A stretch of 64,000 bases of DNA from an uncultured virus (IMG/VR IMGVR_UViG_3300031087_000513) (lineage: Duplodnaviria; Heunggongvirae; Uroviricota; Caudoviricetes). Position 1 is the stretch's first letter, and each line of letters starts with the position of its first letter. The translations under genes and the position numbers were made by a program. Location of the stretch: IMG/VR virus record IMGVR_UViG_3300031087_000513; one strand, given 5' to 3'. Below, one piece after another: positions 9,306 through 59,571 of this stretch. Under the pieces are notes generated by a model. The model was given only the letters and a program-made list of their open reading frames with translations, ran no database searches and had not been told where the DNA came from.

Positions 9306-9348
9306 ATGAGTAAGGCCCCAACCTGATACAGGTTGGGGCCTTACTCAT
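9306..9348. terminator. bidirectional terminator
   Basis: ATGAGTAAGGCCCCAACCTG/CAGGTTGGGGCCTTACTCAT between convergent genes. Confidence 0.85.
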
Positions 9349-13755: not shown

Positions 13756-13813
13756 GACATAGAAATAGGGAAAGGCCCCACATCAACTCAGATGTGGGGC
13801 CTTTCCCTATTAG

Positions 13814-19937: not shown

Positions 19938-20285
19938 CTAAAACAATGTTGGCTCATCTGGTTCAGCAATTGGTTCTTTTTCGGCTCGCAAGGAGAGTAA
20001 TGGTCTTCCAAATTGAGCTCGTTTTTGATTTTGCAGCTCCACCCAAGCGTTAGAGTTGATAGGCAGATTCATGGCACCTAAACGAAGTGCTTTGTTCCGA
20101 ACAGTCTCTGTCAAATCGTAATGTTCTTTATGTGTGCCAGGATACTGAATCCAAGCATCAGAAAGACGCAGTTTCCTGGCAAAGGCAATAAGTTCTTCAC
20201 TGGTATCAGCGAACATGTGCGACCAGCGTGATGTTGTTCGTCCTACTGTTGCAGGAAGAAGCATGTCATCAACGTAGACAGTCAT
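19938..20285 (-). CDS. DUF4031 domain protein
   Basis: MTVYVDD...WSHMFAD--EEL--FA--L-L---W-Q...HYDL. Confidence 0.85.
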   Translation of the reverse strand: MTVYVDDMLLPATVGRTTSRWSHMFADTSEELIAFARKLRLSDAWIQYPGTHKEHYDLTETVRNKALRLGAMNLPINSNAWVELQNQKRAQFGRPLLSLRAEKEPIAEPDEPTLF

Positions 20286-20379
20286 GTCGCTCTCTTTCTT
20301 CGGGATTAAAAAAGAATACCAGGTTCTGGGAAAGATTTTCATATCTTGCAGAACCTGGTATTAGGTGGGTCGAGGATTA

Positions 20380-20580
20380 TCAGTCAATTGCGATTCTCAC
20401 AATCTTTGCTTTGACGAGCTTGTCGTCAACATATACCATCGAGTTAGCAGATTCAACTCTGACTGCTTCATTCTCACAATCACAGCCTTCTGCGACAACA
20501 ATCGCATCAGCTAATCCGAGTTTCTTCATCTCGGTCAACTCTTTAATCAATTTATTTACGGTTAAGGCTTTGGTAGCCAT
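20380..20580 (-). CDS. small hypothetical protein
   Basis: SD AAAGGAAG; LTV--LI--L phage-type start. Confidence 0.65.
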   Translation of the reverse strand: MATKALTVNKLIKELTEMKKLGLADAIVVAEGCDCENEAVRVESANSMVYVDDKLVKAKIVRIAID

Positions 20581-20662
20581 TGTTCTCTTCCTTTCAGTTA
20601 GTGTCAAAAGAACAATGGTTACTGTATCATGAGCTGCTGATAAAAACAACCTCAGCTTTTAT

Positions 20663-21505
20663 CTACTTGTTGAGTTTTAGAGGCTCAACTAATTTGAGTC
20701 GCTCCTCTAAGAATGCTGTCTGTGTTTCCACATTCCGTAAAGTGTTGTTTGAAGAAGTGTCAATCATCAGCTGTAAGCGGTCACGAATCATTTCCAACTG
20801 CTTCTCAAAGTTCATAACAGCTTTATCCAGGACTTCTTTTGAAGCTCCTTTCAATGCGTTTGCTGTGTCAACAATACTTGGAAGGTAGGACTGCTCTACC
20901 TGCTCTAAGAAGTAGCTCTCCTCAGGGGTAGACGCAAGCGTCACTGCGTAACGCTGTAACGCAAGGACATCATTCATCAGCTGAAAACAACGCGGAGCTG
21001 TTTCAGCAGTGATAGCATACGAGTTCGTGGGTACGGGCACCTTCGAGCTACCCAGCTGTTTTCGTTTACCGAAACTGAATAGCTTCTTGACAGACTCAGG
21101 GGCTTTCCATGTCCCCATCACTGGTGCAGCTGCTGCCTCACCTAAATAGATGTTCCGAATATCATTCGCACATGACTGCATTCTGTTGACATAGGACTCA
21201 CTTTTTCCAGTAGTCAGCTTAGTGAAACCCAGTCTGTCCATCTCTTCCAGCAAAGGGATGAATTTTTTGAATAGGAATTGATGAATGTTTGCAGCTTTTG
21301 CAGGGTCTCTGCGCTCTTTACCTTGGAGAGTTTCAATGATTACACGACCACTCTGACTGAAAGGTTGACCTTGTAGAGCGCTGTAGTAGAGGATGTCTCT
21401 ATCTTGAATCTCTTTTCGTTTTTCATCGAGATGCTCAATAAGGGATTGGTAGTCCTTTTCAGAAGCTTCCTGAATCCATTCAACTGACGGAATTACCACG
21501 TTCAT
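20663..21505 (-). CDS. paralog family C (XpaC-like YLP helical C-terminus)
   Basis: EESYFLEQV---YLP-I...NF--QL--I...V--QT-FLEERL. Confidence 0.8.
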   Translation of the reverse strand: MNVVIPSVEWIQEASEKDYQSLIEHLDEKRKEIQDRDILYYSALQGQPFSQSGRVIIETLQGKERRDPAKAANIHQFLFKKFIPLLEEMDRLGFTKLTTGKSESYVNRMQSCANDIRNIYLGEAAAAPVMGTWKAPESVKKLFSFGKRKQLGSSKVPVPTNSYAITAETAPRCFQLMNDVLALQRYAVTLASTPEESYFLEQVEQSYLPSIVDTANALKGASKEVLDKAVMNFEKQLEMIRDRLQLMIDTSSNNTLRNVETQTAFLEERLKLVEPLKLNK

Positions 21506-22299
21506 AGTCTAATTCCTTCCCCAAGTTTTGTGTTAAGAAAATCTGTCTGCAAACGAACATCCATCAGAGTGGCCTGGTAGTATTTTTCAGCCATTACTTC
21601 CATCTTGGAGTAGATGAGATGGAGTTGAGACAGGAAATGCTCCTCAGCCTCCACCCGAACTGATTCACTGGCGTGTTCTAATTGATTTGCAGCGGCAAGA
21701 ATAGTAGGGACATAGACTGTGCTCACCTGCTCAATAAAGTACTGGTCTTCATACTCGGTTGCAGTAGTTGTTAACTCAGTAGCCAGCGCACTTGCGCGAG
21801 CAGCAATTTCTCGCACCTCGTGTAGACGGGATGTATTAGTTTTTGTTGCAACGGCAGAATTTTGGAACTTTGGAATCTCAGGGGCAACCCGCAAATCAAT
21901 GGGATTTGGGAGGGGAGTCTTCCCTTGAGCTTCTCCCCAAACAGCGTAGGCTCTTTTCTTCAAATCATTTGCAGCCCATTCAAGATTTTCCAGTTCCGCA
22001 AAGGTTTCCATACTGCCGTAACGGATGTACTCCTCCAACAGGGGAAGTGCTACCTGAGAAGCCAAAACGTAAAGCTTCTTGAAACTTTTTACGTTTTCAC
22101 GGTTCGCAACAGTCAGCATGCTCAGAGGTAGTTGGATTGCCTCATCAAGCGTTTCAGGAGTCTGGGCGTAACGGAACTCCTTCTTGGCTGCAACCTGCGC
22201 GGAAAGAGTTCTGAACGTGTCAACAGTGCGATTCAATTGCTCTGATGGCATAGCAAAAACATCCCCGAATGAGGTGAATTTGAGCTTCATGTTCGTCAT
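21502..22299 (-). CDS. paralog family C
   Basis: EDQYFIEQV---YVP-I...QL-LI...VRLQTDFL. Confidence 0.8.
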   Translation of the reverse strand: MTNMKLKFTSFGDVFAMPSEQLNRTVDTFRTLSAQVAAKKEFRYAQTPETLDEAIQLPLSMLTVANRENVKSFKKLYVLASQVALPLLEEYIRYGSMETFAELENLEWAANDLKKRAYAVWGEAQGKTPLPNPIDLRVAPEIPKFQNSAVATKTNTSRLHEVREIAARASALATELTTTATEYEDQYFIEQVSTVYVPTILAAANQLEHASESVRVEAEEHFLSQLHLIYSKMEVMAEKYYQATLMDVRLQTDFLNTKLGEGIRL

Positions 22300-23105
22300 G
22301 ACTCAATCTCTTTCTTTTCTAAGCTCTCCGTCAAGAACATTGTCTGAGACTTCACGGTTCCCAGCATCTGCTTCTGCGCGTTTTCTGAAATCTCTTTCGT
22401 CTTATTCAGGACAAGGTTCAGCTGAGCAACGAAGTTCTTCACAAACTCTTCCTTCATCCCATCCGAGCCATTCTGAATTTTTGCAGCAGCTTCCAGAATC
22501 TGAGGGATATACTCAGTAGTAGTCTGCGTGAGGAAATGCTCTTCCTCAGTTGAGACTTTGAAGGAGGAAGCGTACCCATTCATGTCTAAAATCTGTTTGA
22601 TAACATTATCAACAGCCTCAAACCCTGTCTTTGTATTCTTTGAGAGCAATGCAGGGGTAGGGGTAGAAGACAAGCGCAGGTCTGAGAGAATGTCTACTTT
22701 TTTAACACTCTGCCGAGTGTTGTAAGCATTAATCTTTTCAGCGGTTTTCCACATCTTATAGACTGAGTGAAACACCGCTCGTGCGTTAGAATCACTGTAA
22801 CCAGAGTGGTCACCCGTCTTGTCAATTCGTGTGAGAATTGTTCCAGACATCAATTGCAATGCAGGGGAAAGGTCTCGGAAAAGCCGTTTCCAAATAAGCT
22901 TCTGTAAATGAATCGAAGCAGGCCGATTACGGAATGATTTAATGGAACGAGAAACCTTCTCCAGCAACTCTGTGCGCTGCCGTTCATATCCAAATAGTCC
23001 AGTATGGAAAATCTTTTGGGACTTATCGTTGAAATGAGTCAACAACGCCTGGTAGTCAGCATCAGATAGCTCTCTAAACCAAGCAAATGTCCCTTTATCG
23101 CTCAT
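22296..23105 (-). CDS. paralog family C
   Basis: EEEHFL-Q---EYIP-I...NF--QL-LV...VKSQTMFL. Confidence 0.8.
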   Translation of the reverse strand: MSDKGTFAWFRELSDADYQALLTHFNDKSQKIFHTGLFGYERQRTELLEKVSRSIKSFRNRPASIHLQKLIWKRLFRDLSPALQLMSGTILTRIDKTGDHSGYSDSNARAVFHSVYKMWKTAEKINAYNTRQSVKKVDILSDLRLSSTPTPALLSKNTKTGFEAVDNVIKQILDMNGYASSFKVSTEEEHFLTQTTTEYIPQILEAAAKIQNGSDGMKEEFVKNFVAQLNLVLNKTKEISENAQKQMLGTVKSQTMFLTESLEKKEIES

Positions 23106-23881
23106 GATGCGATCTGTTTCCTCTCCATACTTTCAACCAGGAATGCAGTCTGGTTGCGCACATCAGCAAGAGTGCGTTGTTCAGCATCTGCAATCATATC
23201 AGACATTCTCTTCTCAATCAAGCCCAACTGTTGAACAAAGTTGTCAATAGCTTCCTCACGCACACGACTTGGACTGTTCTTAATTCTATCCGCTGCTGTG
23301 AAAATAGCGGGAAGAAGATTGTCTTTCACATTCTCGAAGAAATACTGCTCCTCAGCTGAGAATTCCAGCTTCTGAGCATGTTTTTGCAGTATCTCGATAC
23401 GACTCAGGATTGGGTCAACCTGAGGGAACAAGGATTTCATATCAACAGTGGAAGGGGTAGTAGCAAGCTTCAAGGAATCTAGCACGTAAGAACCCCCTGC
23501 TTTTACCTCTTTTCCCTGCGCCTTGTTGAACTTCTTGGAAAAAGCTTTTCCAGAGTAATATAAACGTATGATTATCCAACTGTTTGTTAGCCAATTAGCT
23601 TGGTAAGTTCTTGCAATGAAGTCTATTTTAGGAATAATGTTTTTGAACAGGGCTGTATAGACCATCCGAGTATAAAACTTCTGGTCCCATTCAATATCTC
23701 CTAGTTCATCTAAAAAATAGTCGAAGTTATGCTGTGCGGCTTCAACTGCATCCTCATCAGTGAAGTGCTCCAAGGTGCAGACCTCCTTCACTTTAAGTCG
23801 TATATGGGCGAGTAGAGCCTCATAATCTTTCTGAGAGAGTGCTTTGAACCACTCGTATGAGCCTTGTTTGAGTTCACTCAT
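23102..23881 (-). CDS. paralog family C
   Basis: EEQYFFENV---LLP-I...NF--QL-LI...VRNQTAFL. Confidence 0.8.
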   Translation of the reverse strand: MSELKQGSYEWFKALSQKDYEALLAHIRLKVKEVCTLEHFTDEDAVEAAQHNFDYFLDELGDIEWDQKFYTRMVYTALFKNIIPKIDFIARTYQANWLTNSWIIIRLYYSGKAFSKKFNKAQGKEVKAGGSYVLDSLKLATTPSTVDMKSLFPQVDPILSRIEILQKHAQKLEFSAEEQYFFENVKDNLLPAIFTAADRIKNSPSRVREEAIDNFVQQLGLIEKRMSDMIADAEQRTLADVRNQTAFLVESMERKQIAS

Positions 23882-24654
23882 GCTGTCAGTTCTTTCTTAT
23901 TTGAGGCTTCAAGGAAAAGGGTTTGTGCTCGGACCTCAGCAAGAATCTTTTTCTCTGCATCGCGGATGATAGTTTCCAAACGCTTTTGAATTAGATTCAG
24001 CTGTTCAGTGAAGTTTTTCTTTGCTTCCGCTTGTGCATCTTCAGAAGCTGTCTGAATGCGTACTGATGCAAGCGCGATAGTCGGAAGGTAGTCTTCCTTC
24101 ACCTGCTCCACAAAGTATGCATCCTCAGCAGTCAGCTGTAATTGGCTGGCTGTGGTGCGCAATACCATGATTTCCTCAAAGGGTTTCAGCAATCCAGAGG
24201 GAAGTTTCTGTAATGGCGCAACAGTCTCTACAAAGTTACTCTGCAGCTCTTTCAGGATGGTACCTTCTGTACGTTCCTGCTTGGCAACTCGTTCAATTTG
24301 TCTCATTTTCCACGTTTTCAGTATTGGAAACACTTTTCTGAGATTATAGCTATATTTTGGAGGAACTTCGTCGGTTCCATATGATTGAAGGGCTTGCAAA
24401 CAAGGCAGAATACTCTTGAAAGTTATTCGCCACACCCTATACTTTTGGTAAACGCTAGCATCAGGGTAATTGGATACAGTATTCATATGAGATTGCAAAG
24501 AACGAGAGTAATCTGTGGGTAACCAACTAGCGGAGCGGCCAAGATTTGAAACTTTCAAAATTTCTCCACCCTGTTTACCCACAGAAGCAAAGAACGCGGT
24601 CCACTCCTCATCAGTCAACTGTAAACACCATTGTAGTGACCCAAACTTGCTCAT
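23878..24654 (-). CDS. paralog family C
   Basis: EDAYFVEQV--DYLP-I...NF--QL-LI...VRAQTLFL. Confidence 0.8.
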   Translation of the reverse strand: MSKFGSLQWCLQLTDEEWTAFFASVGKQGGEILKVSNLGRSASWLPTDYSRSLQSHMNTVSNYPDASVYQKYRVWRITFKSILPCLQALQSYGTDEVPPKYSYNLRKVFPILKTWKMRQIERVAKQERTEGTILKELQSNFVETVAPLQKLPSGLLKPFEEIMVLRTTASQLQLTAEDAYFVEQVKEDYLPTIALASVRIQTASEDAQAEAKKNFTEQLNLIQKRLETIIRDAEKKILAEVRAQTLFLEASNKKELTA

Positions 24655-25484
24655 AATGTTCCCTCATTCCCTAACCGCTCTTCCAAGAATTGGGACTGAG
24701 CGTTCATTGCTTTCATCTTCTGTTCCAGTGCAGCTTCTTGAACTGCCTCTAACCGTCCAGAGAGGAGGCTCAATTGGTTCAAGAATGCTTCCTTAGCCTG
24801 CTGACGGAGCCTCTCAGGGCCTTTCAGGAAGGATAGGTAAAGTTCCACGGAGTTCGGGAGATAGTCCGTTACAACGCGTTCTAGCAGATATTCGTCTTCA
24901 ACACTGTGAACCTCAGACTGCAATGACTCCCAGAGTGTGCGCATATTCTGCATCCGCTCATCAAAGTCAGCAGGCAAATCTGAGTAGGTTGGGAACGCAA
25001 GGGAAGCTAAATGCTGTTCAACAGTTCCATCAGTTGACTCGGTGTACCGTGAAAGCTTTTGAGCATCTGTTTTTGTGCGCAGTTGAGACACTTCACCTAA
25101 GACTTTACGAACACGTTCAGAAACTTCTAAGTAGTTGCCTTCATGGTTTGCTGACGTGCTTGCTCGTTCAGCTTTCATCTGACCCAAGCGTTGGATCATC
25201 TCAGGAGCATCCTGGTTAATAATGCGATACAACAACCCTGCTTCATCATCTGTAACAAGCTGGCGGTCAACCAGCATCCATTCTTTGCGGATCACATCAA
25301 TCTGGTCTAAGAGAACCTTCTGCTGTTCAGGGTAATACAGTACATTCCCTGAGAGAATCTCCTGTAACCGCAGCATGATTTCACTCCACTGTGTAATCAA
25401 GTTCCGCGTAGAGGCAGCACGAACCCAGCCAGCATTCACTGATGGAACACTGGCTGGGTTCTCTGTTTTACCAAACCATGCCAT
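24651..25484 (-). CDS. paralog family C, most XpaC-like member
   Basis: ERVVTDYLPNSVELYL...LNQLSLL...AQSQFLEERL. Confidence 0.8.
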   Translation of the reverse strand: MAWFGKTENPASVPSVNAGWVRAASTRNLITQWSEIMLRLQEILSGNVLYYPEQQKVLLDQIDVIRKEWMLVDRQLVTDDEAGLLYRIINQDAPEMIQRLGQMKAERASTSANHEGNYLEVSERVRKVLGEVSQLRTKTDAQKLSRYTESTDGTVEQHLASLAFPTYSDLPADFDERMQNMRTLWESLQSEVHSVEDEYLLERVVTDYLPNSVELYLSFLKGPERLRQQAKEAFLNQLSLLSGRLEAVQEAALEQKMKAMNAQSQFLEERLGNEGTL

Positions 25485-25486
25485 GC

Positions 25487-26014
25487 TTAGTTACCTCCTG
25501 CATGAGCAGCCAGGAAGTCACTGATGCGTGTCAGGTCTGTTCTTGTGATTCCGTAAAGCGGGTCAGGAGCGACGACCAGAGTGGGTACATCAAAGTCAGA
25601 CGCGACGAACTCAACTGTCGCCTCATCATCAACCCAGATGAATGGCTCACCGTTGTAGTTAGCTTTCAGCGCAGCATACTTTCGCTTCGCACGCTCTGAG
25701 ACAAGGTTATCCCGAGTTATCCCTGTCTCAGGGTCCCAGTCTACGAAACCGTTGGAGTGCGTACCAACCCGAGGGTCTACAAGACTAACAGCCTCATTCA
25801 CCCAAGTGGTAAGCCACTTCCAGTCAAACTTATACAGGGCATGCAAGTCGTTCAGCTTCTTCACTAACTCGGAGGAGTAGTTCACGCTGAACGAGCCATG
25901 CCGACTATGGATGGTGTCACGACGAAGGTACCCTAACCCGTCACGGTTACGGTTGTACTTGGAGCGTGAAGCATCAAAGTTCACCACCCCGTCGAAGTCA
26001 AGGAAAAGTTTCAT
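25487..26014 (-). CDS. HAD-superfamily phosphatase (HAD_SAK-like)
   Basis: LFLDFDGVVN, WLTTW, FIWVDDE, PDP--GIT motifs. Confidence 0.85.
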   Translation of the reverse strand: MKLFLDFDGVVNFDASRSKYNRNRDGLGYLRRDTIHSRHGSFSVNYSSELVKKLNDLHALYKFDWKWLTTWVNEAVSLVDPRVGTHSNGFVDWDPETGITRDNLVSERAKRKYAALKANYNGEPFIWVDDEATVEFVASDFDVPTLVVAPDPLYGITRTDLTRISDFLAAHAGGN

Positions 26015-26075
26015 GGTCACATACTACCATGAAACTCGCAAAAAGCAACCCGCAACTGGCGGACTCAGCAAAAGC

Positions 26076-26528
26076 TCAGTTATCAGAACCAGGGGTCAGA
26101 ATTTCATCTAAACTCTGCTTCTCATCAGAAGCCTTTGTCGGAGCTGCATTCAACTCATATTTCAACCCTGAGCTATCCAGTGGGACAAGAACCACAGTGT
26201 CCTTACCAATGTTCACAGGACTTCCACTTTTCAGCTTCTCCAACTGGGAGGAGGAAACATCAATTTTCTTCTCATGAAGAACCTCCGCTAAACGCTGCTG
26301 GTTCACATGCTCGTTTAGCATTCCACCACCGACAACACCTGCAACTACAATCAGGACTGTCTCCACGATAATAATGGGAAACAGAATGATGTTCTTCGGG
26401 TTCGGCTTACCGCTCTTACGAAGACTGAACAGCCAGATAAAATCAATCAGTGCGAAAAGAACCGCAGCTGCACCACCGATGAGCAGTAAGCTCTGGTAGA
26501 CAGGCATGAAGGAGATAAGGTCTGACAT
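26076..26528 (-). CDS. two-TM membrane protein
   Basis: Two hydrophobic helices plus small soluble domain. Confidence 0.75.
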   Translation of the reverse strand: MSDLISFMPVYQSLLLIGGAAAVLFALIDFIWLFSLRKSGKPNPKNIILFPIIIVETVLIVVAGVVGGGMLNEHVNQQRLAEVLHEKKIDVSSSQLEKLKSGSPVNIGKDTVVLVPLDSSGLKYELNAAPTKASDEKQSLDEILTPGSDN

Positions 26529-26582
26529 GGGTATGCTTTCATGGAAACGTCTGATATATGGTCATATATCGGCTTTAAAACA

Positions 26583-26699
26583 TATCACCAAGGAAGGCTT
26601 TATCGGGTTTACGAAGTGTAGAAGGCTTACACTCACTTACTACCATTCCTGGCAGGAGCCGAGTCGCATCTTCAACCGACAGCATGTTCCTTGGTGATA
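26583..26699 (-). ncRNA. candidate standalone rod-like ncRNA (about 117 nt)
   Basis: Promoter TTGCAT(26733-26728)-N17-TACAGT(26710-26705); 13-bp perfect 5'/3' closing stem; GGAA-capped apical hairpin. Confidence 0.65.
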
Positions 26700-26710
26700 G
26701 GCTTACTGTA

Positions 26711-27061
26711 TCACACTGTTTCCACTGATGCAAACGCTTCTGCGAAACGAGGCTCACGAATCATCTGTTCTCCCGCAAGGGTGAATCCATGCTGTTCGTA
26801 GAAGTACAGTAACGCCTCATACGGTGTACCCTGTGCATCATCAGGAATACATAAAAGGCGAAGATTACTTCGGTCTGCAAACACCGTCAAGTCTTCCATG
26901 ACTTCTGACCCATATCCTTGTCTTCTTCTCATAGTAGGGACATAGAGAAGATGTAGTGTCAGTTCATTGTTCTGTAGCGACACCAGAATTTTCAACCCAG
27001 GCACCATTGCCTCCCATGTGTACACAAGGGAGCGAAGCTCTGAATGCTGCACATCCATCAT
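26711..27061 (-). CDS. GNAT family acetyltransferase
   Basis: LYVP---RRQGYGS acetyl-CoA motif; FYEQHGF. Confidence 0.85.
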   Translation of the reverse strand: MMDVQHSELRSLVYTWEAMVPGLKILVSLQNNELTLHLLYVPTMRRRQGYGSEVMEDLTVFADRSNLRLLCIPDDAQGTPYEALLYFYEQHGFTLAGEQMIREPRFAEAFASVETV

Positions 27062-27094
27062 AACACCCAACCTTTTCCACCATTACGGTCTCAT

Positions 27095-27673
27095 TTATCT
27101 AATAACAAGCGCTTCTTGGCCGTTCTGTTCACGAACGATGAGCGCCATTTCACCATCATCCATTACCGTATCTAAGAACACCCCTGATTCAGGTTTTGGA
27201 ATCTTCTCATCGCTCAGAATTGCAAGCAATGCATCTGAGTAGTCAAAATCCAACCCATACCGACGCTGAATCCACAAACCAACTACCATGAACACGGTGG
27301 AGTCAGCAGCGTTCCGAAGTTTCTCAGCTGTGAAAGAAATCTTCCGAGCTAACACAGTGAAGAAGATGACCAGGAGGGTTGAGATGGTAACAGAAGGACT
27401 CAGCAGCACCTGTCCCAACGTCCTTTCACCAGGAAGATATGACTGTATCTGCAAAGACAGAATCAGCAGTAGAACATTCACTCCCAGAATCAGTGGAACA
27501 AGAGGAGCTGCAACTCGTTCCAAGCGGGACAGTCCTGTTTTCTCATCATTGAGTACATCCCAAGCGAAGACACGGTTCTGCGTCCATTCCTCGTCAAGCC
27601 ATGATACGGGCATCAACACTTTCGGGTTGAATGGAGTAATGCTAAATGTTTCAGATGCGGTACGGTGTTTCAT
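27095..27673 (-). CDS. two-TM membrane protein
   Basis: Two TM helices then WIQRRYGLD. Confidence 0.75.
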   Translation of the reverse strand: MKHRTASETFSITPFNPKVLMPVSWLDEEWTQNRVFAWDVLNDEKTGLSRLERVAAPLVPLILGVNVLLLILSLQIQSYLPGERTLGQVLLSPSVTISTLLVIFFTVLARKISFTAEKLRNAADSTVFMVVGLWIQRRYGLDFDYSDALLAILSDEKIPKPESGVFLDTVMDDGEMALIVREQNGQEALVIR

Positions 27674-27759
27674 AGTGCCTCCTACACTATCTTATCTGCC
27701 TAACAAGCGTTGTTTTTGTCCGATAACTCTTACGGTTTCCGCAAAATGTTAGGTGTACG

Positions 27760-28299
27760 ATGGACTGGGTAAGTGCAAAATTTCCAATGAAGAAAATGAT
27801 TCTCATCATTGCTGGAATCTCAATACTCTTTTCCGCCTTAATAGGATTTGCAGTTGGGAAAGACGGTAGCTCTCTCGCTGGGATTTTCGTAGGCATGCTC
27901 ATCATGCTCGCTATCATCCTAGTCCCAGCAGTCATTTACACGAACAATAAATATTCTGCGTGGGTTGCCCGTAACGGGACAGCTATTTCCATCAAAGGTG
28001 AAACCATCCCAGCTTTCCAAGTTGTTGGAGGCGAGCTGTGGAATGACAACAGGCAGCAGATGACATTGATTATCAGAACCTCTACCGGTAAACAGACCCG
28101 CATCCTCACCCAGCATTGGCTGTACCCAGCAAGTCGTCAGCTGTTAGAAAGCTTGTATACGATGGTGCAGCAGAGCGCTTGGGTTGAAGGAGAGCCTCAG
28201 CCTCAGTACACAAAGATGATGGGTGGACGAACAGTGTTCCCCTTGACCAAAACTGAAACTCTACAATATTTGTACCAAGTACTCGCCAACACTCCGTAG
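27760..28299 (+). CDS. two-TM membrane protein with soluble C-domain
   Basis: Two N-terminal TM helices; start uncertain. Confidence 0.75.
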   Translation: MDWVSAKFPMKKMILIIAGISILFSALIGFAVGKDGSSLAGIFVGMLIMLAIILVPAVIYTNNKYSAWVARNGTAISIKGETIPAFQVVGGELWNDNRQQMTLIIRTSTGKQTRILTQHWLYPASRQLLESLYTMVQQSAWVEGEPQPQYTKMMGGRTVFPLTKTETLQYLYQVLANTP

Positions 28300-28302
28300 A
28301 GG

Positions 28303-28794
28303 TTATTTTTCAGTTGTCTCAGGAAGTTCAATGAAGGTGATGAGTTCTGCATGCTTACCGACATTGCGAATAGCCACACGCATCAGTTCATCGCCCACAC
28401 GTAGCGGTAACTTGGTCCCAGACATCAAAGAGATAAGCAGCTCGCCTGTTACATCCAGGTTGTACTTGTTTTGGAATAACGGCAGCGTTGCGTCGACAGC
28501 TGTCTGAATCTTCGCTTGCTGTACTTTACGTGCACGGAAGACAAACAACAGCAGCAGCCCTACGCTGAGGACTGTGAAAGAAGACAAGCTCAGTGCGATG
28601 AGGTTGAAGATGGGAAGCCAAGCTGGAACAACAATACCTGCAAGGATTGTTACAATCGTGAGGATGAATACAACCAGAGGAAGACGTGAAAGTTTTCGCA
28701 GACGCTGATGGTAGTCATCAGTCAAACGAGTTGCTGGGACCGCTGGAATCACGATGTCAGGGTGGACAGCAGGTACTTCTAATTCTTCAATCAT
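28303..28794 (-). CDS. two-TM membrane protein
   Basis: Two TM helices then FQNKYNLDV. Confidence 0.75.
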   Translation of the reverse strand: MIEELEVPAVHPDIVIPAVPATRLTDDYHQRLRKLSRLPLVVFILTIVTILAGIVVPAWLPIFNLIALSLSSFTVLSVGLLLLFVFRARKVQQAKIQTAVDATLPLFQNKYNLDVTGELLISLMSGTKLPLRVGDELMRVAIRNVGKHAELITFIELPETTEK

Positions 28795-30724: not shown

Positions 30725-30814
30725 AATTTAGCTGATAAAACCCTGGAAATTACGTAAAACAGCCGAAAAGGTATTTAGAACCTCTTTCCTTTGGTTTTGA
30801 CTTACTCTAAGAAC

Positions 30815-30893
30815 ACAGAAGAAGGCCCCACCAGTATGTTAGTGGGGCCTTCTTCTGTGTCACTATAGTTCCGAGGACGGAATTATAGTGACA
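30815..30893. terminator. tandem hairpins between convergent genes
   Basis: ACAGAAGAAGGCCCCAC/GTGGGGCCTTCTTCTGT then GTCACTATAGTTCCG/CGGAATTATAGTGAC. Confidence 0.75.
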
Positions 30894-32030: not shown

Positions 32031-32095
32031 TCTCAGAGACACGCCCGAAAAACACTGATATTTGACGCGAGGGCCTCAATCAGGTATTGTATGTT

Positions 32096-32375
32096 TTGTC
32101 GCCGCGGAGAAGCGGAAAACGAATGGGAAGACCGGTTATGTCTTCCGCGCGGATTCGTTTCTACCGTGGCGATAAGGAAAGCATCCCTACTGAGCCAGAT
32201 TTTTTCTCTCTCTCCTTATCAGGTTGAGTGGGGGATGAAAAGCACAGTGAATAGTTGAAGCAAATGACGCTCCTTGAAGCTACGCTCTTTCCTTGGTTGC
32301 AAATAACAGAAAATAGAAAACCCCTGAGAACAGCTTTCTCTCTCTCCTCTCCCAGCTGTTCTCAGGGGTTTTTCT
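32096..32375 (+). ncRNA. candidate structured sRNA (about 280 nt) with two UC-rich loops
   Basis: TTGACG-N17-TATTGT promoter; long 5' stem-loop; two hairpins with TTCTCTCTCTCCT loops, the second being the terminator. Confidence 0.7.
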
Positions 32376-32383
32376 TATCTATT

Positions 32384-38295: not shown

Positions 38296-39612
38296 GTGCA
38301 AACCATTGCCTTAAAATACGCCCTGAGCCCTACTATAAGTCAGATGGATTCGCTTTCCTCTCATATCGGGGCTGCTCGTTATGCTTATAACTGGTCCGTA
38401 GCAACCGTGGCAGCAAATTGGGAAGCAGTTCAACAGGAACCGACTATTCCTTACATGAACCTGTCAGCTTACGGTTTACGGAAAGAGCTGAACCGAGTCA
38501 AGGATGAGATTGCTCCCTGGTGGCGAGAGAACAGCAAAGAAGCATTCGCTACTGGAACCGCTAACGCTGCAATGGCTTTCAAGAATTGGTTCAAAAATCG
38601 CAACGGTACCAGGTCTGGCAAAACAGGATTCCCAAAATTTAAAACACGGAACCATGACACGCAGACAGGTATTGTTTTCACTACTGGAACACGTAGGCTT
38701 GAATCCGATAATTGTCATTTCACCCTACCCACCATTGGGTCAGTGCGGTTACACGAGAAAGCGAAAACTCTCCGCTGGTTCTTACATCAGGGCAGTACTA
38801 TTGCTAATGTAACAGTTCGTAAGGATGGAACTCGCTGGATTGCTTCCATTAATGTAAAAGTAGAGGATACTCTTGCTTTGCAGTACTTCGCTGGAAAACA
38901 AGGTAGGAAAACTCGTAAATCAGCTGTTGGTGTTGATGTTGGTCTGAAAGTTTTCCTCGCCACAAGCGATGGAGCATTCATAGAAAATCCAGCTTTCCAG
39001 CGTAAAGCATTAGCGAAGATACGTAAAGCTAATAAGCGGTTAGCGCGGAGACGAAAACTGGATAAGCGCACTGGGGAGACTGCCTCAGTGCGTTGGGACA
39101 AAGCGCATCAACAGCTTGTGAGAACCCATGAGAAGATTCGTAACCAGAGGACTGATTTCCTACACAAGGTAAGCAAACAGTTAGTTGATGATTACCAGCT
39201 CATCGGGATAGAAGACCTGCATATTGCTGGGATGGTACAGAACAGGCACTTATCCAGAAGTATTGCTGACGCGGGTTGGGGTGAGTTTCGTAGGCAGCTC
39301 ACTTATAAGAGTGCTTGGTATGGAAATGAGTTACAAGTAATTCCTCGGTTCTACCCGAGTAGTAAAATGTGTTCAGCTTGTGAGACAGTAAAAGCCACAC
39401 TGTCTCTAAGCGAACGGACATTTAGTTGCGCAACTTGCGGTTTAGTAATGGACCGTGATGTGAACGCTGCTGTGAACATTAGGAATAAAGCTGTCGCCCA
39501 GAGTTGCGGGGAGACATTAAACGAACGTGGAGAGGAAAGCACTGGCTTGGTCAAGTTGACAAGTGAAACTATCCTCGGTGAAACGTTAAGAGACAATAGT
39601 CTCAAGTCATAA
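38296..39612 (+). CDS. tnpB: RNA-guided endonuclease TnpB
   Basis: GVDVG, IEDL, CSAC...CATC, DRDVNAAVNI. Confidence 0.95.
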   Translation: MQTIALKYALSPTISQMDSLSSHIGAARYAYNWSVATVAANWEAVQQEPTIPYMNLSAYGLRKELNRVKDEIAPWWRENSKEAFATGTANAAMAFKNWFKNRNGTRSGKTGFPKFKTRNHDTQTGIVFTTGTRRLESDNCHFTLPTIGSVRLHEKAKTLRWFLHQGSTIANVTVRKDGTRWIASINVKVEDTLALQYFAGKQGRKTRKSAVGVDVGLKVFLATSDGAFIENPAFQRKALAKIRKANKRLARRRKLDKRTGETASVRWDKAHQQLVRTHEKIRNQRTDFLHKVSKQLVDDYQLIGIEDLHIAGMVQNRHLSRSIADAGWGEFRRQLTYKSAWYGNELQVIPRFYPSSKMCSACETVKATLSLSERTFSCATCGLVMDRDVNAAVNIRNKAVAQSCGETLNERGEESTGLVKLTSETILGETLRDNSLKS

Positions 39613-39690
39613 AAGACTAAGTTTATGTTGGCGAACAGTTTACTGTCCATCATCGCAAACTTAACGGTTGAACTCTTGAAACACCTATGA
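39490..39690 (+). ncRNA. putative omegaRNA (right end plus guide), boundaries approximate
   Basis: Expected position overlapping the tnpB 3' end; short hairpins; ends near AACGG. Confidence 0.5.
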
Positions 39691-39731
39691 TAGTATGAGC
39701 TTCTAACCTTTTTAGAGAGAAGAGAACTACC

Positions 39732-50525: not shown

Positions 50526-50575
50526 CAAATGAGGAAGGCCCGCAACCAGAACAGGTTGCGGGCCTTCCTCATTTG
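50526..50575. terminator. bidirectional terminator
   Basis: CAAATGAGGAAGGCCCGCAACC/GGTTGCGGGCCTTCCTCATTTG. Confidence 0.85.
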
Positions 50576-59271: not shown

Positions 59272-59318
59272 GACTCTAGGTTGCGACAACACCAAAGCTG
59301 TGCTACGCTAAGCATATT

Positions 59319-59519
59319 ATGAATAACGAAAAGAACGTGACCATCGAAGAGTCACTGAACGCAAACATCAACAAGTACGTCATCGTCAAGATGAAGAACG
59401 GGCGAGCAATCTCTGGAACGCTCACCAAGCTCAACGAGCAGTTCCGCATCAAGCTCGGTGTACAGTTCATTGAGGTGAACGCAGAGGACATCGCCCGCCC
59501 GCTCCGTCTCGGAGCCTAA
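59319..59519 (+). CDS. small Sm/LSm(Hfq)-like beta-barrel protein
   Basis: L---INKYVIVKMKNGRAISGTL resembles Sm1; monocistronic with own promoter and terminator. Confidence 0.55.
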   Translation: MNNEKNVTIEESLNANINKYVIVKMKNGRAISGTLTKLNEQFRIKLGVQFIEVNAEDIARPLRLGA

Positions 59520-59526
59520 TACTCAG

Positions 59527-59571
59527 AATGAAGAAGGCCCTCACAGTAGAAACTGTGAGGGCCTTCTTCAT
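59527..59571. terminator. bidirectional terminator
   Basis: ATGAAGAAGGCCCTCACAGT/ACTGTGAGGGCCTTCTTCAT. Confidence 0.85.

Follow-up and report, generated by a model that had tools for sequence, protein, structure and literature searches.

Short RNAs derived from the 5′ untranslated regions (5′UTRs) of phage transcripts, as in phiKZ, PAK_P3 and YuA, are the described RNAs that come closest to the locus considered in this work. In the part of the report used here (PMC10914365), phage 5′UTRs are stated to contain 42 terminators, most of which produce, from a shared 5′ end, a long mRNA or else a dominant short RNA of less than 250 nt, and 29 candidate 5′UTR-derived non-coding RNAs (ncRNAs) are listed. 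A second point of comparison is provided by Gram-positive 5′ stabilisers: in the portion of a review on which we draw (PMC3997798), RppH of B. subtilis is described as requiring at least two unpaired 5′ nucleotides and the aprE 5′ stem-loop is cited. Here we characterize a 117-nt candidate structured RNA, referred to as the rod, in a 64,000-nt stretch (the window) of the uncultured virus IMGVR_UViG_3300031087_000513, a member of the Caudoviricetes. To our knowledge, nearly all genes of very large phage-like elements are without an assigned function, and regulatory RNAs have been mapped in few model phages.

The rod (26583..26699, minus strand) occupies a 182-nt gap between two genes of the same strand. 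Upstream is a gene for a GNAT-like acetyltransferase of 116 aa (26711..27061, stop codon TGA at 26713-26711) and downstream is a gene for a 150-aa protein (26076..26528, ATG at 26528) with two transmembrane helices predicted by hydropathy. The genes from 27673 to 20663 are co-directional and separated by small gaps, the rod-bearing gap being the single large exception. The reading that we favour, and hold only tentatively, is that the rod is a promoter-proximal structured 5′ leader of the 150-aa membrane-protein gene. In its way of working it would most resemble phage 5′UTR-derived short RNAs and attenuators, and it belongs to no sequence family. The structure, its strand bias, its rarity, the enrichment of its promoter class and the lack of any other promoter-like motif before the gene are established; where transcription of the rod would start and terminate, and what its regulatory effect might be, we infer from the sequence.

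The rod is closed by a perfect 13-bp stem formed by UAUCACCAAGGAA (26699-26687) and UUCCUUGGUGAUA (26595-26583) on the minus strand. Proceeding inwards, this stem is followed by an 8-bp helix with GUCGG/CCGAU in it and then by a small junction and more helices (ACUCG/UGAGU among them); a 4x4 internal loop precedes the apical hairpin, CUGCCA-GGAA-UGGUAG (26655-26640), whose GGAA loop is of the GNRA type. The stem, the inner helices and the apical hairpin, together with the promoter hexamers treated below, had been placed on this strand by a first-pass annotation made from the letters alone, and all are indeed where it had put them. That annotation had also described a rod with closed ends and a central bubble. 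The closed-end rod is confirmed, and the minimum free energy (MFE) fold includes in addition a small three-way junction and an asymmetric 3′-side loop. The latter and the 4x4 loop are the largest loops, and neither the MFE nor the centroid structure has a large central bubble. In a repeat search the inverted repeat extends further (AAGCC.../...UGUUU, 26578..26704, minus), with arms of 18 nt that are 89% complementary and 91 nt apart: four further pairs follow one C/U mismatch, giving 17/18 bp. These four outer pairs would form only in read-through transcripts started upstream, from the GNAT gene.

As a minus-strand RNA, the 117 nt fold with an MFE of -44.1 kcal/mol (z-score -4.98), and none of 200 dinucleotide shuffles is as stable. 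The opposite strand is weaker (-38.1 kcal/mol, z-score -3.47). The minus strand folds better by 6 kcal/mol because the inner helices use G-U pairs, and these pairs together with the strand bias argue for an RNA read from the minus strand. The repeat is also rare: when all 55 intergenic regions were shuffled with preservation of dinucleotides in 1000 rounds, a perfect inverted repeat of at least 13 nt with a loop of at least 20 nt was found in just 7 sets. The structure is therefore real, and in intergenic DNA it would hardly arise by chance; its energy by itself does not make it stand out.

These data also bear on the view that there is no RNA function at all and that the repeat is a chance or DNA-level palindrome, for example what is left of a small inverted-repeat mobile element, a site for protein binding or recombination, or a segment able to invert. 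The closing stem consists of Watson-Crick pairs only, which is what a DNA repeat would show. A simple estimate (64000 x 400 / 4^13) gives about 0.4 perfect 13-mer inverted repeats (arms within 400 nt) for the whole window, and at about six other loci of the window a long-range helix of 13-17 contiguous pairs is seen, in one case inside a coding gene. The rod segment is, moreover, no better conserved than its flanks. Against this view stand the rarity of such a repeat within intergenic DNA and the G-U pairs and better folding of the minus strand. The 64 kb contain no second copy, either in a search with the 13-mer (up to two mismatches) or with a covariance model, and the Pfam scan of the window's 99 open reading frames (ORFs) finds no recombinase or transposase beside the rod, the TnpB gene described below being 12 kb away. 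Finally, the segment is found at the same position in the relative locus L001. We consider a mere palindrome decidedly unlikely.

A promoter-like element (26705..26733, minus) precedes the rod. It consists of TTGCAT (26733-26728) as -35 and, 17 nt further on, TACAGT (26710-26705), the -10 hexamer of the first-pass annotation. Extended 5′, this hexamer becomes TGATACAGT (26713-26705), an extended -10 separated from the -35 by 14 nt, and the TGA within it doubles as the stop codon of the GNAT-like gene. The claim that the rod has its own promoter is strengthened in that TGATACAGT belongs to the extended -10 class and would have transcription begin with the stem's first base; it is weakened in that a strict sigma-70 scan was silent here. 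Divergent intergenic regions of the window carry extended -10 promoters of the form TGnTAnAnT, which are often leaderless or very short-leadered. Of 13 matches in the window to the motif class TG.TA[TCG]A[AG]T, 8 are wholly intergenic, and the density of 0.52/kb in intergenic DNA versus 0.04/kb in coding DNA corresponds to an enrichment of about 13-fold.

TGATACAGT itself is present just twice in the window. The other copy (20629-20621, minus) precedes, by about 40 nt, a Shine-Dalgarno-led ORF of 66 codons (20380-20580, minus) which had been missed by the longest-ORF pass. The same pass missed an apparently leaderless ORF of about 70 codons (2534-2765, minus) that starts 7 nt after TGGTATAAT, and two ORFs on the plus strand, 20228-20632 and 2486-2785, are probably not genuine. 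The 371-nt gap 2534-2904 was considered as a second long leader and rejected: it contains the leaderless small ORF and has a z-score of +0.4 versus shuffles.

With a start about 7 nt after the -10, the closing stem would be transcribed from its very first base, at 26698 +/- 1. The resulting 170-nt leader would be exceptional in the window because other promoter-to-ATG distances are about 0-40 nt, several genes being leaderless. Neither a TG-extended -10 nor an A2/T6 -10 hexamer occurs in the 54 nt that separate the rod from the ATG (26582-26529). With no promoter-like motif in these 54 nt, transcripts of the 150-aa gene must cross the rod. A promoter motif upstream and a rod 54 nt before the ATG at 26528 constitute the layout of an attenuator or of a 5′UTR-derived short RNA.

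As a 5′ leader, the rod would function as follows. The internal extended -10 promoter, TTGCAT-N14-TGATACAGT, overlapping the GNAT stop codon, would start an RNA at about 26698 that opens directly with the 13-bp closing stem. By analogy with known stabilisers, a 5′ end buried in a helix could shield the transcript from 5′-end-dependent decay. The closing stem and the U-rich tract UGUUUU (26577..26582, minus), which lies directly 3′ of the stem's 3′ arm, may halt part of the polymerases and thereby free a stable, end-paired RNA of about 120 nt, and the polymerases that read through would make the mRNA of the 150-aa gene. UGUUUU, which follows three A-U pairs, may be a weak termination point; the terminator scan, limited to loops of 3-8 nt, did not report it. 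A small hairpin or palindrome, GAUAUAU-GACC-AUAUAUC (26553..26570, minus), lies between the rod and the start codon. Both this second hairpin and the U-tract had been noticed in the first-pass annotation and are present as described. The leader reading is supported by the distribution of terminators: the scan finds a terminator-like hairpin with GCUUUUUGCG after the 150-aa gene (26047..26065, minus) and none after the GNAT-like gene. The former is likely to be the end of the transcription unit.

The two products predicted in this way, a short RNA and a longer mRNA, would correspond to the pattern mapped in 5′UTRs of phiKZ and other phages in the part of PMC10914365 considered. The rod shares with those RNAs the arrangement of a promoter followed by a structured segment upstream of a gene, as well as a terminator-like end, a predicted length below 250 nt, a large phage-like genome and the lack of a known family. 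It differs from them in several ways. The short RNAs of that source are defined by transcript ends and Northern blots, and the rod is a prediction from sequence; we find no sequence relation between the rod and the RNAs described there. Compared with the terminators described in the same material, the terminator-like stem of the rod is not a small terminal hairpin and consists of the 5′ and 3′ ends of the RNA itself, enclosing 91 nt. It is in this respect that the rod is unusual, since its terminator-like helix is built from the very first and the very last 13 bases.

Known Gram-positive 5′ stabilisers such as the aprE leader are short hairpins. The rod differs from these in being a multi-helix structure of 117 nt in which the 3′ arm lies 100 nt away. 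It resembles them at the 5′ end: the predicted start would leave 0-2 unpaired nucleotides before a strong helix, a feature which, judging from the part of the review at hand (PMC3997798), would block RppH and 5′-end-dependent decay.

The first-pass annotation had regarded the rod as a standalone RNA. This would be a trans-acting ncRNA of about 117-123 nt that has its own promoter and terminates at its own closing stem and U-tract. Like 6S or Y RNA, it would serve as a decoy or scaffold to which a protein binds, or it would base-pair with targets. We consider this reading unlikely. It draws some support from abundant short RNAs of similar size reported for phiKZ 5′UTRs in the part of PMC10914365 used here. 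The promoter-class motif, moreover, puts the start where the stem begins. UGUUUU abuts the 3′ arm, and the other hairpin terminators of the window are also poor in U. The GNRA-type apical loop and several internal loops are open to binding, and a 66-aa protein with a weak LSM-like match below its cut-off (E=2e-4) is encoded 33 kb away. Standalone status is nevertheless not borne out. The U-tract, already weak and preceded by A-U pairs, is reduced to UGCUUU in L001, and the downstream gene, lacking a promoter-like motif of its own, depends on transcripts that cross the rod. A duplex scan of 79 translation-start regions gave no target, 67% of shuffled RNAs performing as well.

Comparison with known RNA families gave no assignment, in agreement with the first-pass annotation, which had been unable to match the rod to a family. 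An Rfam covariance search of the locus (25500-27800, permissive filters, E<=10) gave four chance-level matches, none of them at the rod; over the 64-kb window (E<=0.1) there was again none at the rod and none above the gathering score. The likeness to 6S, Y and signal recognition particle (SRP) RNAs that had been proposed is not upheld, as there is no Rfam match, large central bubble or tRNA-like arm, and no partner protein among the 99 ORFs scanned. 6S RNA is roughly 180-200 nt long, compared with 117 nt for the rod, and its large central bubble mimics an open promoter. The rod is like 6S RNA in its paired 5′ and 3′ ends and in its rod shape with internal loops, and unlike it in having no covariance match to RF00013 and related models at E<=10 and no such bubble. 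It shares with Y RNA (YrlA) a closed terminal stem and a similar size, and the gene two positions downstream codes for a HAD domain of the "Swiss Army Knife RNA repair" type. It differs from Y RNA in the lack of an Rfam match and of a tRNA-like domain; ARAGORN detects no tRNA-type gene and no tRNA-like domain at the rod, and the Pfam scan of the 99 ORFs, which covers 64 kb of the 883-kb contig, reveals no Ro/TROVE or RtcB and no other gene for an RNA partner. The SRP models of Rfam do not match the rod at E<=10. Two further candidates were discarded: a retron msr-msd RNA, for which inverted repeats are present and both a reverse transcriptase (RVT) domain among the 99 ORFs and a PADLOC match among nine rod-neighbouring proteins (0/9) are lacking, and a miniature inverted-repeat mobile element, the rod being single-copy within the window.

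A more far-reaching proposal is that the element of about 0.88 Mb encodes a closed-end RNA of about 120 nt, of no described family, which acts in trans as a protein-binding decoy or scaffold. Candidates for its partner would be a host RNA polymerase, a nuclease and the Sm-like protein that the element encodes. The RNA would be transcribed from an internal promoter and would terminate at its own terminal stem. We regard this proposal as quite improbable.

A metagenome scan identified one relative locus, L001, on an 878-kb contig (878,612 bp). It is about 97% identical, and about 98% identical outside a hypervariable patch; the rod sits at the same place and L001 gives an identical fold. The homology search proposed in the first-pass annotation succeeded to the extent that a relative keeping the fold exists, and fell short in that there are no compensatory double changes. 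Among the 46 pairs, 44 are invariant, 2 are changed on one side with pairing kept and none is broken. Four substitutions occur in the 131-nt stretch, two in unpaired positions and two in pairs, these last being G-U to A-U in the apical hairpin and G-U to G-C in the outer extension. In L001 the promoter-like element is kept save for one spacer base, UGUUUU becomes UGCUUU, and the second hairpin retains its arms with a GACU loop. The rod is no more conserved than its flanks, so the comparison with L001 speaks neither for nor against selection on the structure.

Further searches returned no relative: blastn with 501 nt versus phages and with 5 kb versus plasmids gave no match, neither viral contigs, in scans guided by the GNAT protein, by the 150-aa protein and by the alignment A4, nor genome contigs, scanned with A4, contained a relative, and an arm-gap-arm pattern had no match in viral contigs. 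The apical-hairpin pattern matched 35 loci in viral contigs and a 10-nt arm pattern 39 loci in genome contigs. These 74 loci are attributed to chance, since all score at most 28.2 bits with R1, a covariance model built from two sequences (the rod locus and L001), versus 161 bits for the rod locus. Over the 64-kb window R1 recovers the rod locus only, the next score being 23.8 bits on a terminator hairpin. The hypervariable patch in the comparison with L001 (23400-23880, with 224 mismatches or gaps in about 522 columns) lies within an ORF at 23102-23881 (minus). This ORF belongs to a co-directional set of six (20663-25484), each encoding 258-280 aa, in which stops and starts overlap. The 7.8 kb around the patch differ by about 1.7% from L001.

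The outer G-U to G-C change in L001 is also relevant to another reading, in which the rod is an intercistronic processing or stability element of an operon RNA comprising the 192-aa gene, the GNAT gene, the rod and the 150-aa gene. The 17/18-bp stem would then be an RNase III-type substrate, or a 3′ protective hairpin for the upstream cistrons. The analogy is with the RNase III sites of phage T7, which are intercistronic hairpins of about 50-60 nt among the early genes; the rod is likewise intercistronic and has internal loops and a long double strand, of 17/18 bp in read-through RNA. This arrangement is consistent with the 18-nt arms, which are 89% complementary, with the run of co-directional, closely spaced genes interrupted only by the 182-nt gap and with the lack of a terminator between the GNAT-like gene and the rod. 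It leaves unexplained, however, why a promoter-class motif should stand exactly one start-distance upstream of the 13-bp stem, and this reading appears rather improbable.

The rod is also crossed by a 36-codon ORF on the minus strand (ATG 26685-26683, stop 26577-26575), which raises the question of a small protein gene. The ORF is intact in L001, AAGGAA stands ahead of its ATG, and its codon-usage score of 4.0 bits lies at the 16th percentile of real genes. That score, however, is equalled by 21% of open non-coding frames, and AAGGAA is 5-7 nt nearer to the ATG than in genes of the window, its GGA core being at -5..-3 versus about -12..-8. Of the changes in L001, one is synonymous and three are non-synonymous. 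Neither the ORF nor a 60-aa form of it occurs in a collection of 15 billion proteins (0/3 candidate products), and there is no Pfam match at E<=1. A small protein gene is therefore highly improbable. A 63-codon ORF on the antisense strand was also considered and rejected, since it has a stop in L001.

Several observations weigh against the interpretation of the rod as a 5′ leader. The start, the end and the expression of the rod RNA are all predictions. The promoter agrees with the consensus at 7/12 positions, with 3/6 in the -35, and went unreported in the strict sigma-70 scan. The absence of compensatory double changes in 46 pairs, as seen in two sequences that are about 97% identical, gives no covariation, and the divergence of the rod (3/117, or 2.6%) is not below that of its flanks (about 1.7% outside the hypervariable patch). 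The window is rich in hairpins: 436 of 12774 real 131-nt windows (3.4%, at 45 loci) reach -47.4 kcal/mol or lower, which places the raw fold energy of the rod at about the 3rd percentile of these 64 kb, and an equally strong rod (59387-59511, minus) lies inside a plus-strand coding ORF of 66 codons. A multi-helix structure of 117 nt is far more elaborate than a 5′ stabiliser needs, and the Gram-positive host assumed for the stabiliser analogy is only suggested.

The proteins encoded on either side of the rod have few relatives. The GNAT-like protein has a Pfam match to Acetyltransf_7 (E=1.4e-5) at 25.8 bits, slightly below the cut-off of 27 bits, and its only relatives are 100, 97 and 88% identical. 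Those of the 150-aa protein are limited to 98, 86 and 81% identity, the 86% one being encoded on an 828-kb contig. This protein has no family match in Pfam, PHROGs, PADLOC or NCBIfam, and its structure model, with a predicted local distance difference test (pLDDT) value of 53, was not used. A protein atlas gave no match at or above 0.9, and in the rod neighbourhood NCBIfam yielded weak matches only, together with a nucleotidyltransferase far under its cut-off. The region 26076-28794 encodes four small proteins (192, 150, 179 and 163 aa), each with 2-3 predicted transmembrane helices and a soluble tail, none of which belongs to a known family.

The window is part of a contig of 883,042 bp; two other contigs, of 878,612 bp and 828,331 bp, are near-identical or related to it. 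Only 17 of the 99 scanned ORFs have any Pfam match and no phage hallmark genes were seen in the 64 kb. The element is very large and mostly unassigned, and a giant phage, a plasmid-like element and a small genome are all candidates for its nature. Several features hint at a Gram-positive host: leaderless genes, extended -10 promoters of the TGn type, AAGGA ribosome sites, a LytR_cpsA_psr protein, and best matches of the TnpB and HAD proteins in Streptomyces, Bifidobacterium, Rhodococcus and Arthrobacter records. The TnpB gene (38296-39612, plus) is of the RNA-guided endonuclease type, with OrfB_IS605, Cas12f1-like TNB and helix-turn-helix (HTH) domains; its best plasmid matches are annotated as IS607-family TnpB (36-44% identity), and it is followed by a gap of 119 nt (39613-39731).

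Other structured or RNA-related features of the window deserve mention. The 66-aa ORF with the weak LSM/Sm match (59319-59519, plus; 21.4 bits versus a cut-off of 23.4 bits) has a promoter-like motif ahead of it (59281-59309), and its product may be a small RNA-binding protein. The opposite strand of this ORF forms a very stable rod with a 16-bp helix. In a 353-nt gap (32031-32383), a segment on the plus strand (32094-32180) forms a helix of about 21 bp enclosing a hairpin. The region has a z-score of -4.4, the segment contains no convincing ORF and has no Rfam match, and it is located upstream of a 19-bp terminator hairpin (32317-32372). The repeat search also revealed perfect hairpins of about 20 bp with a common AAGGCCC(C) core, mostly between convergent genes (9306-9348, 13764-13811, 30804-30869, 50526-50575, 59528-59571 and others), which are probably bidirectional terminators or a repeated palindromic element.

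The rod remains a candidate and bears on no long-standing open question. Its design, an end-paired RNA whose promoter is concealed within the 3′ end of the gene before it, is simple and might possibly be reused as an expression part. If real, it would represent a clean and compact promoter-proximal structured RNA in very large phage-like elements, whose RNA biology has been little explored.

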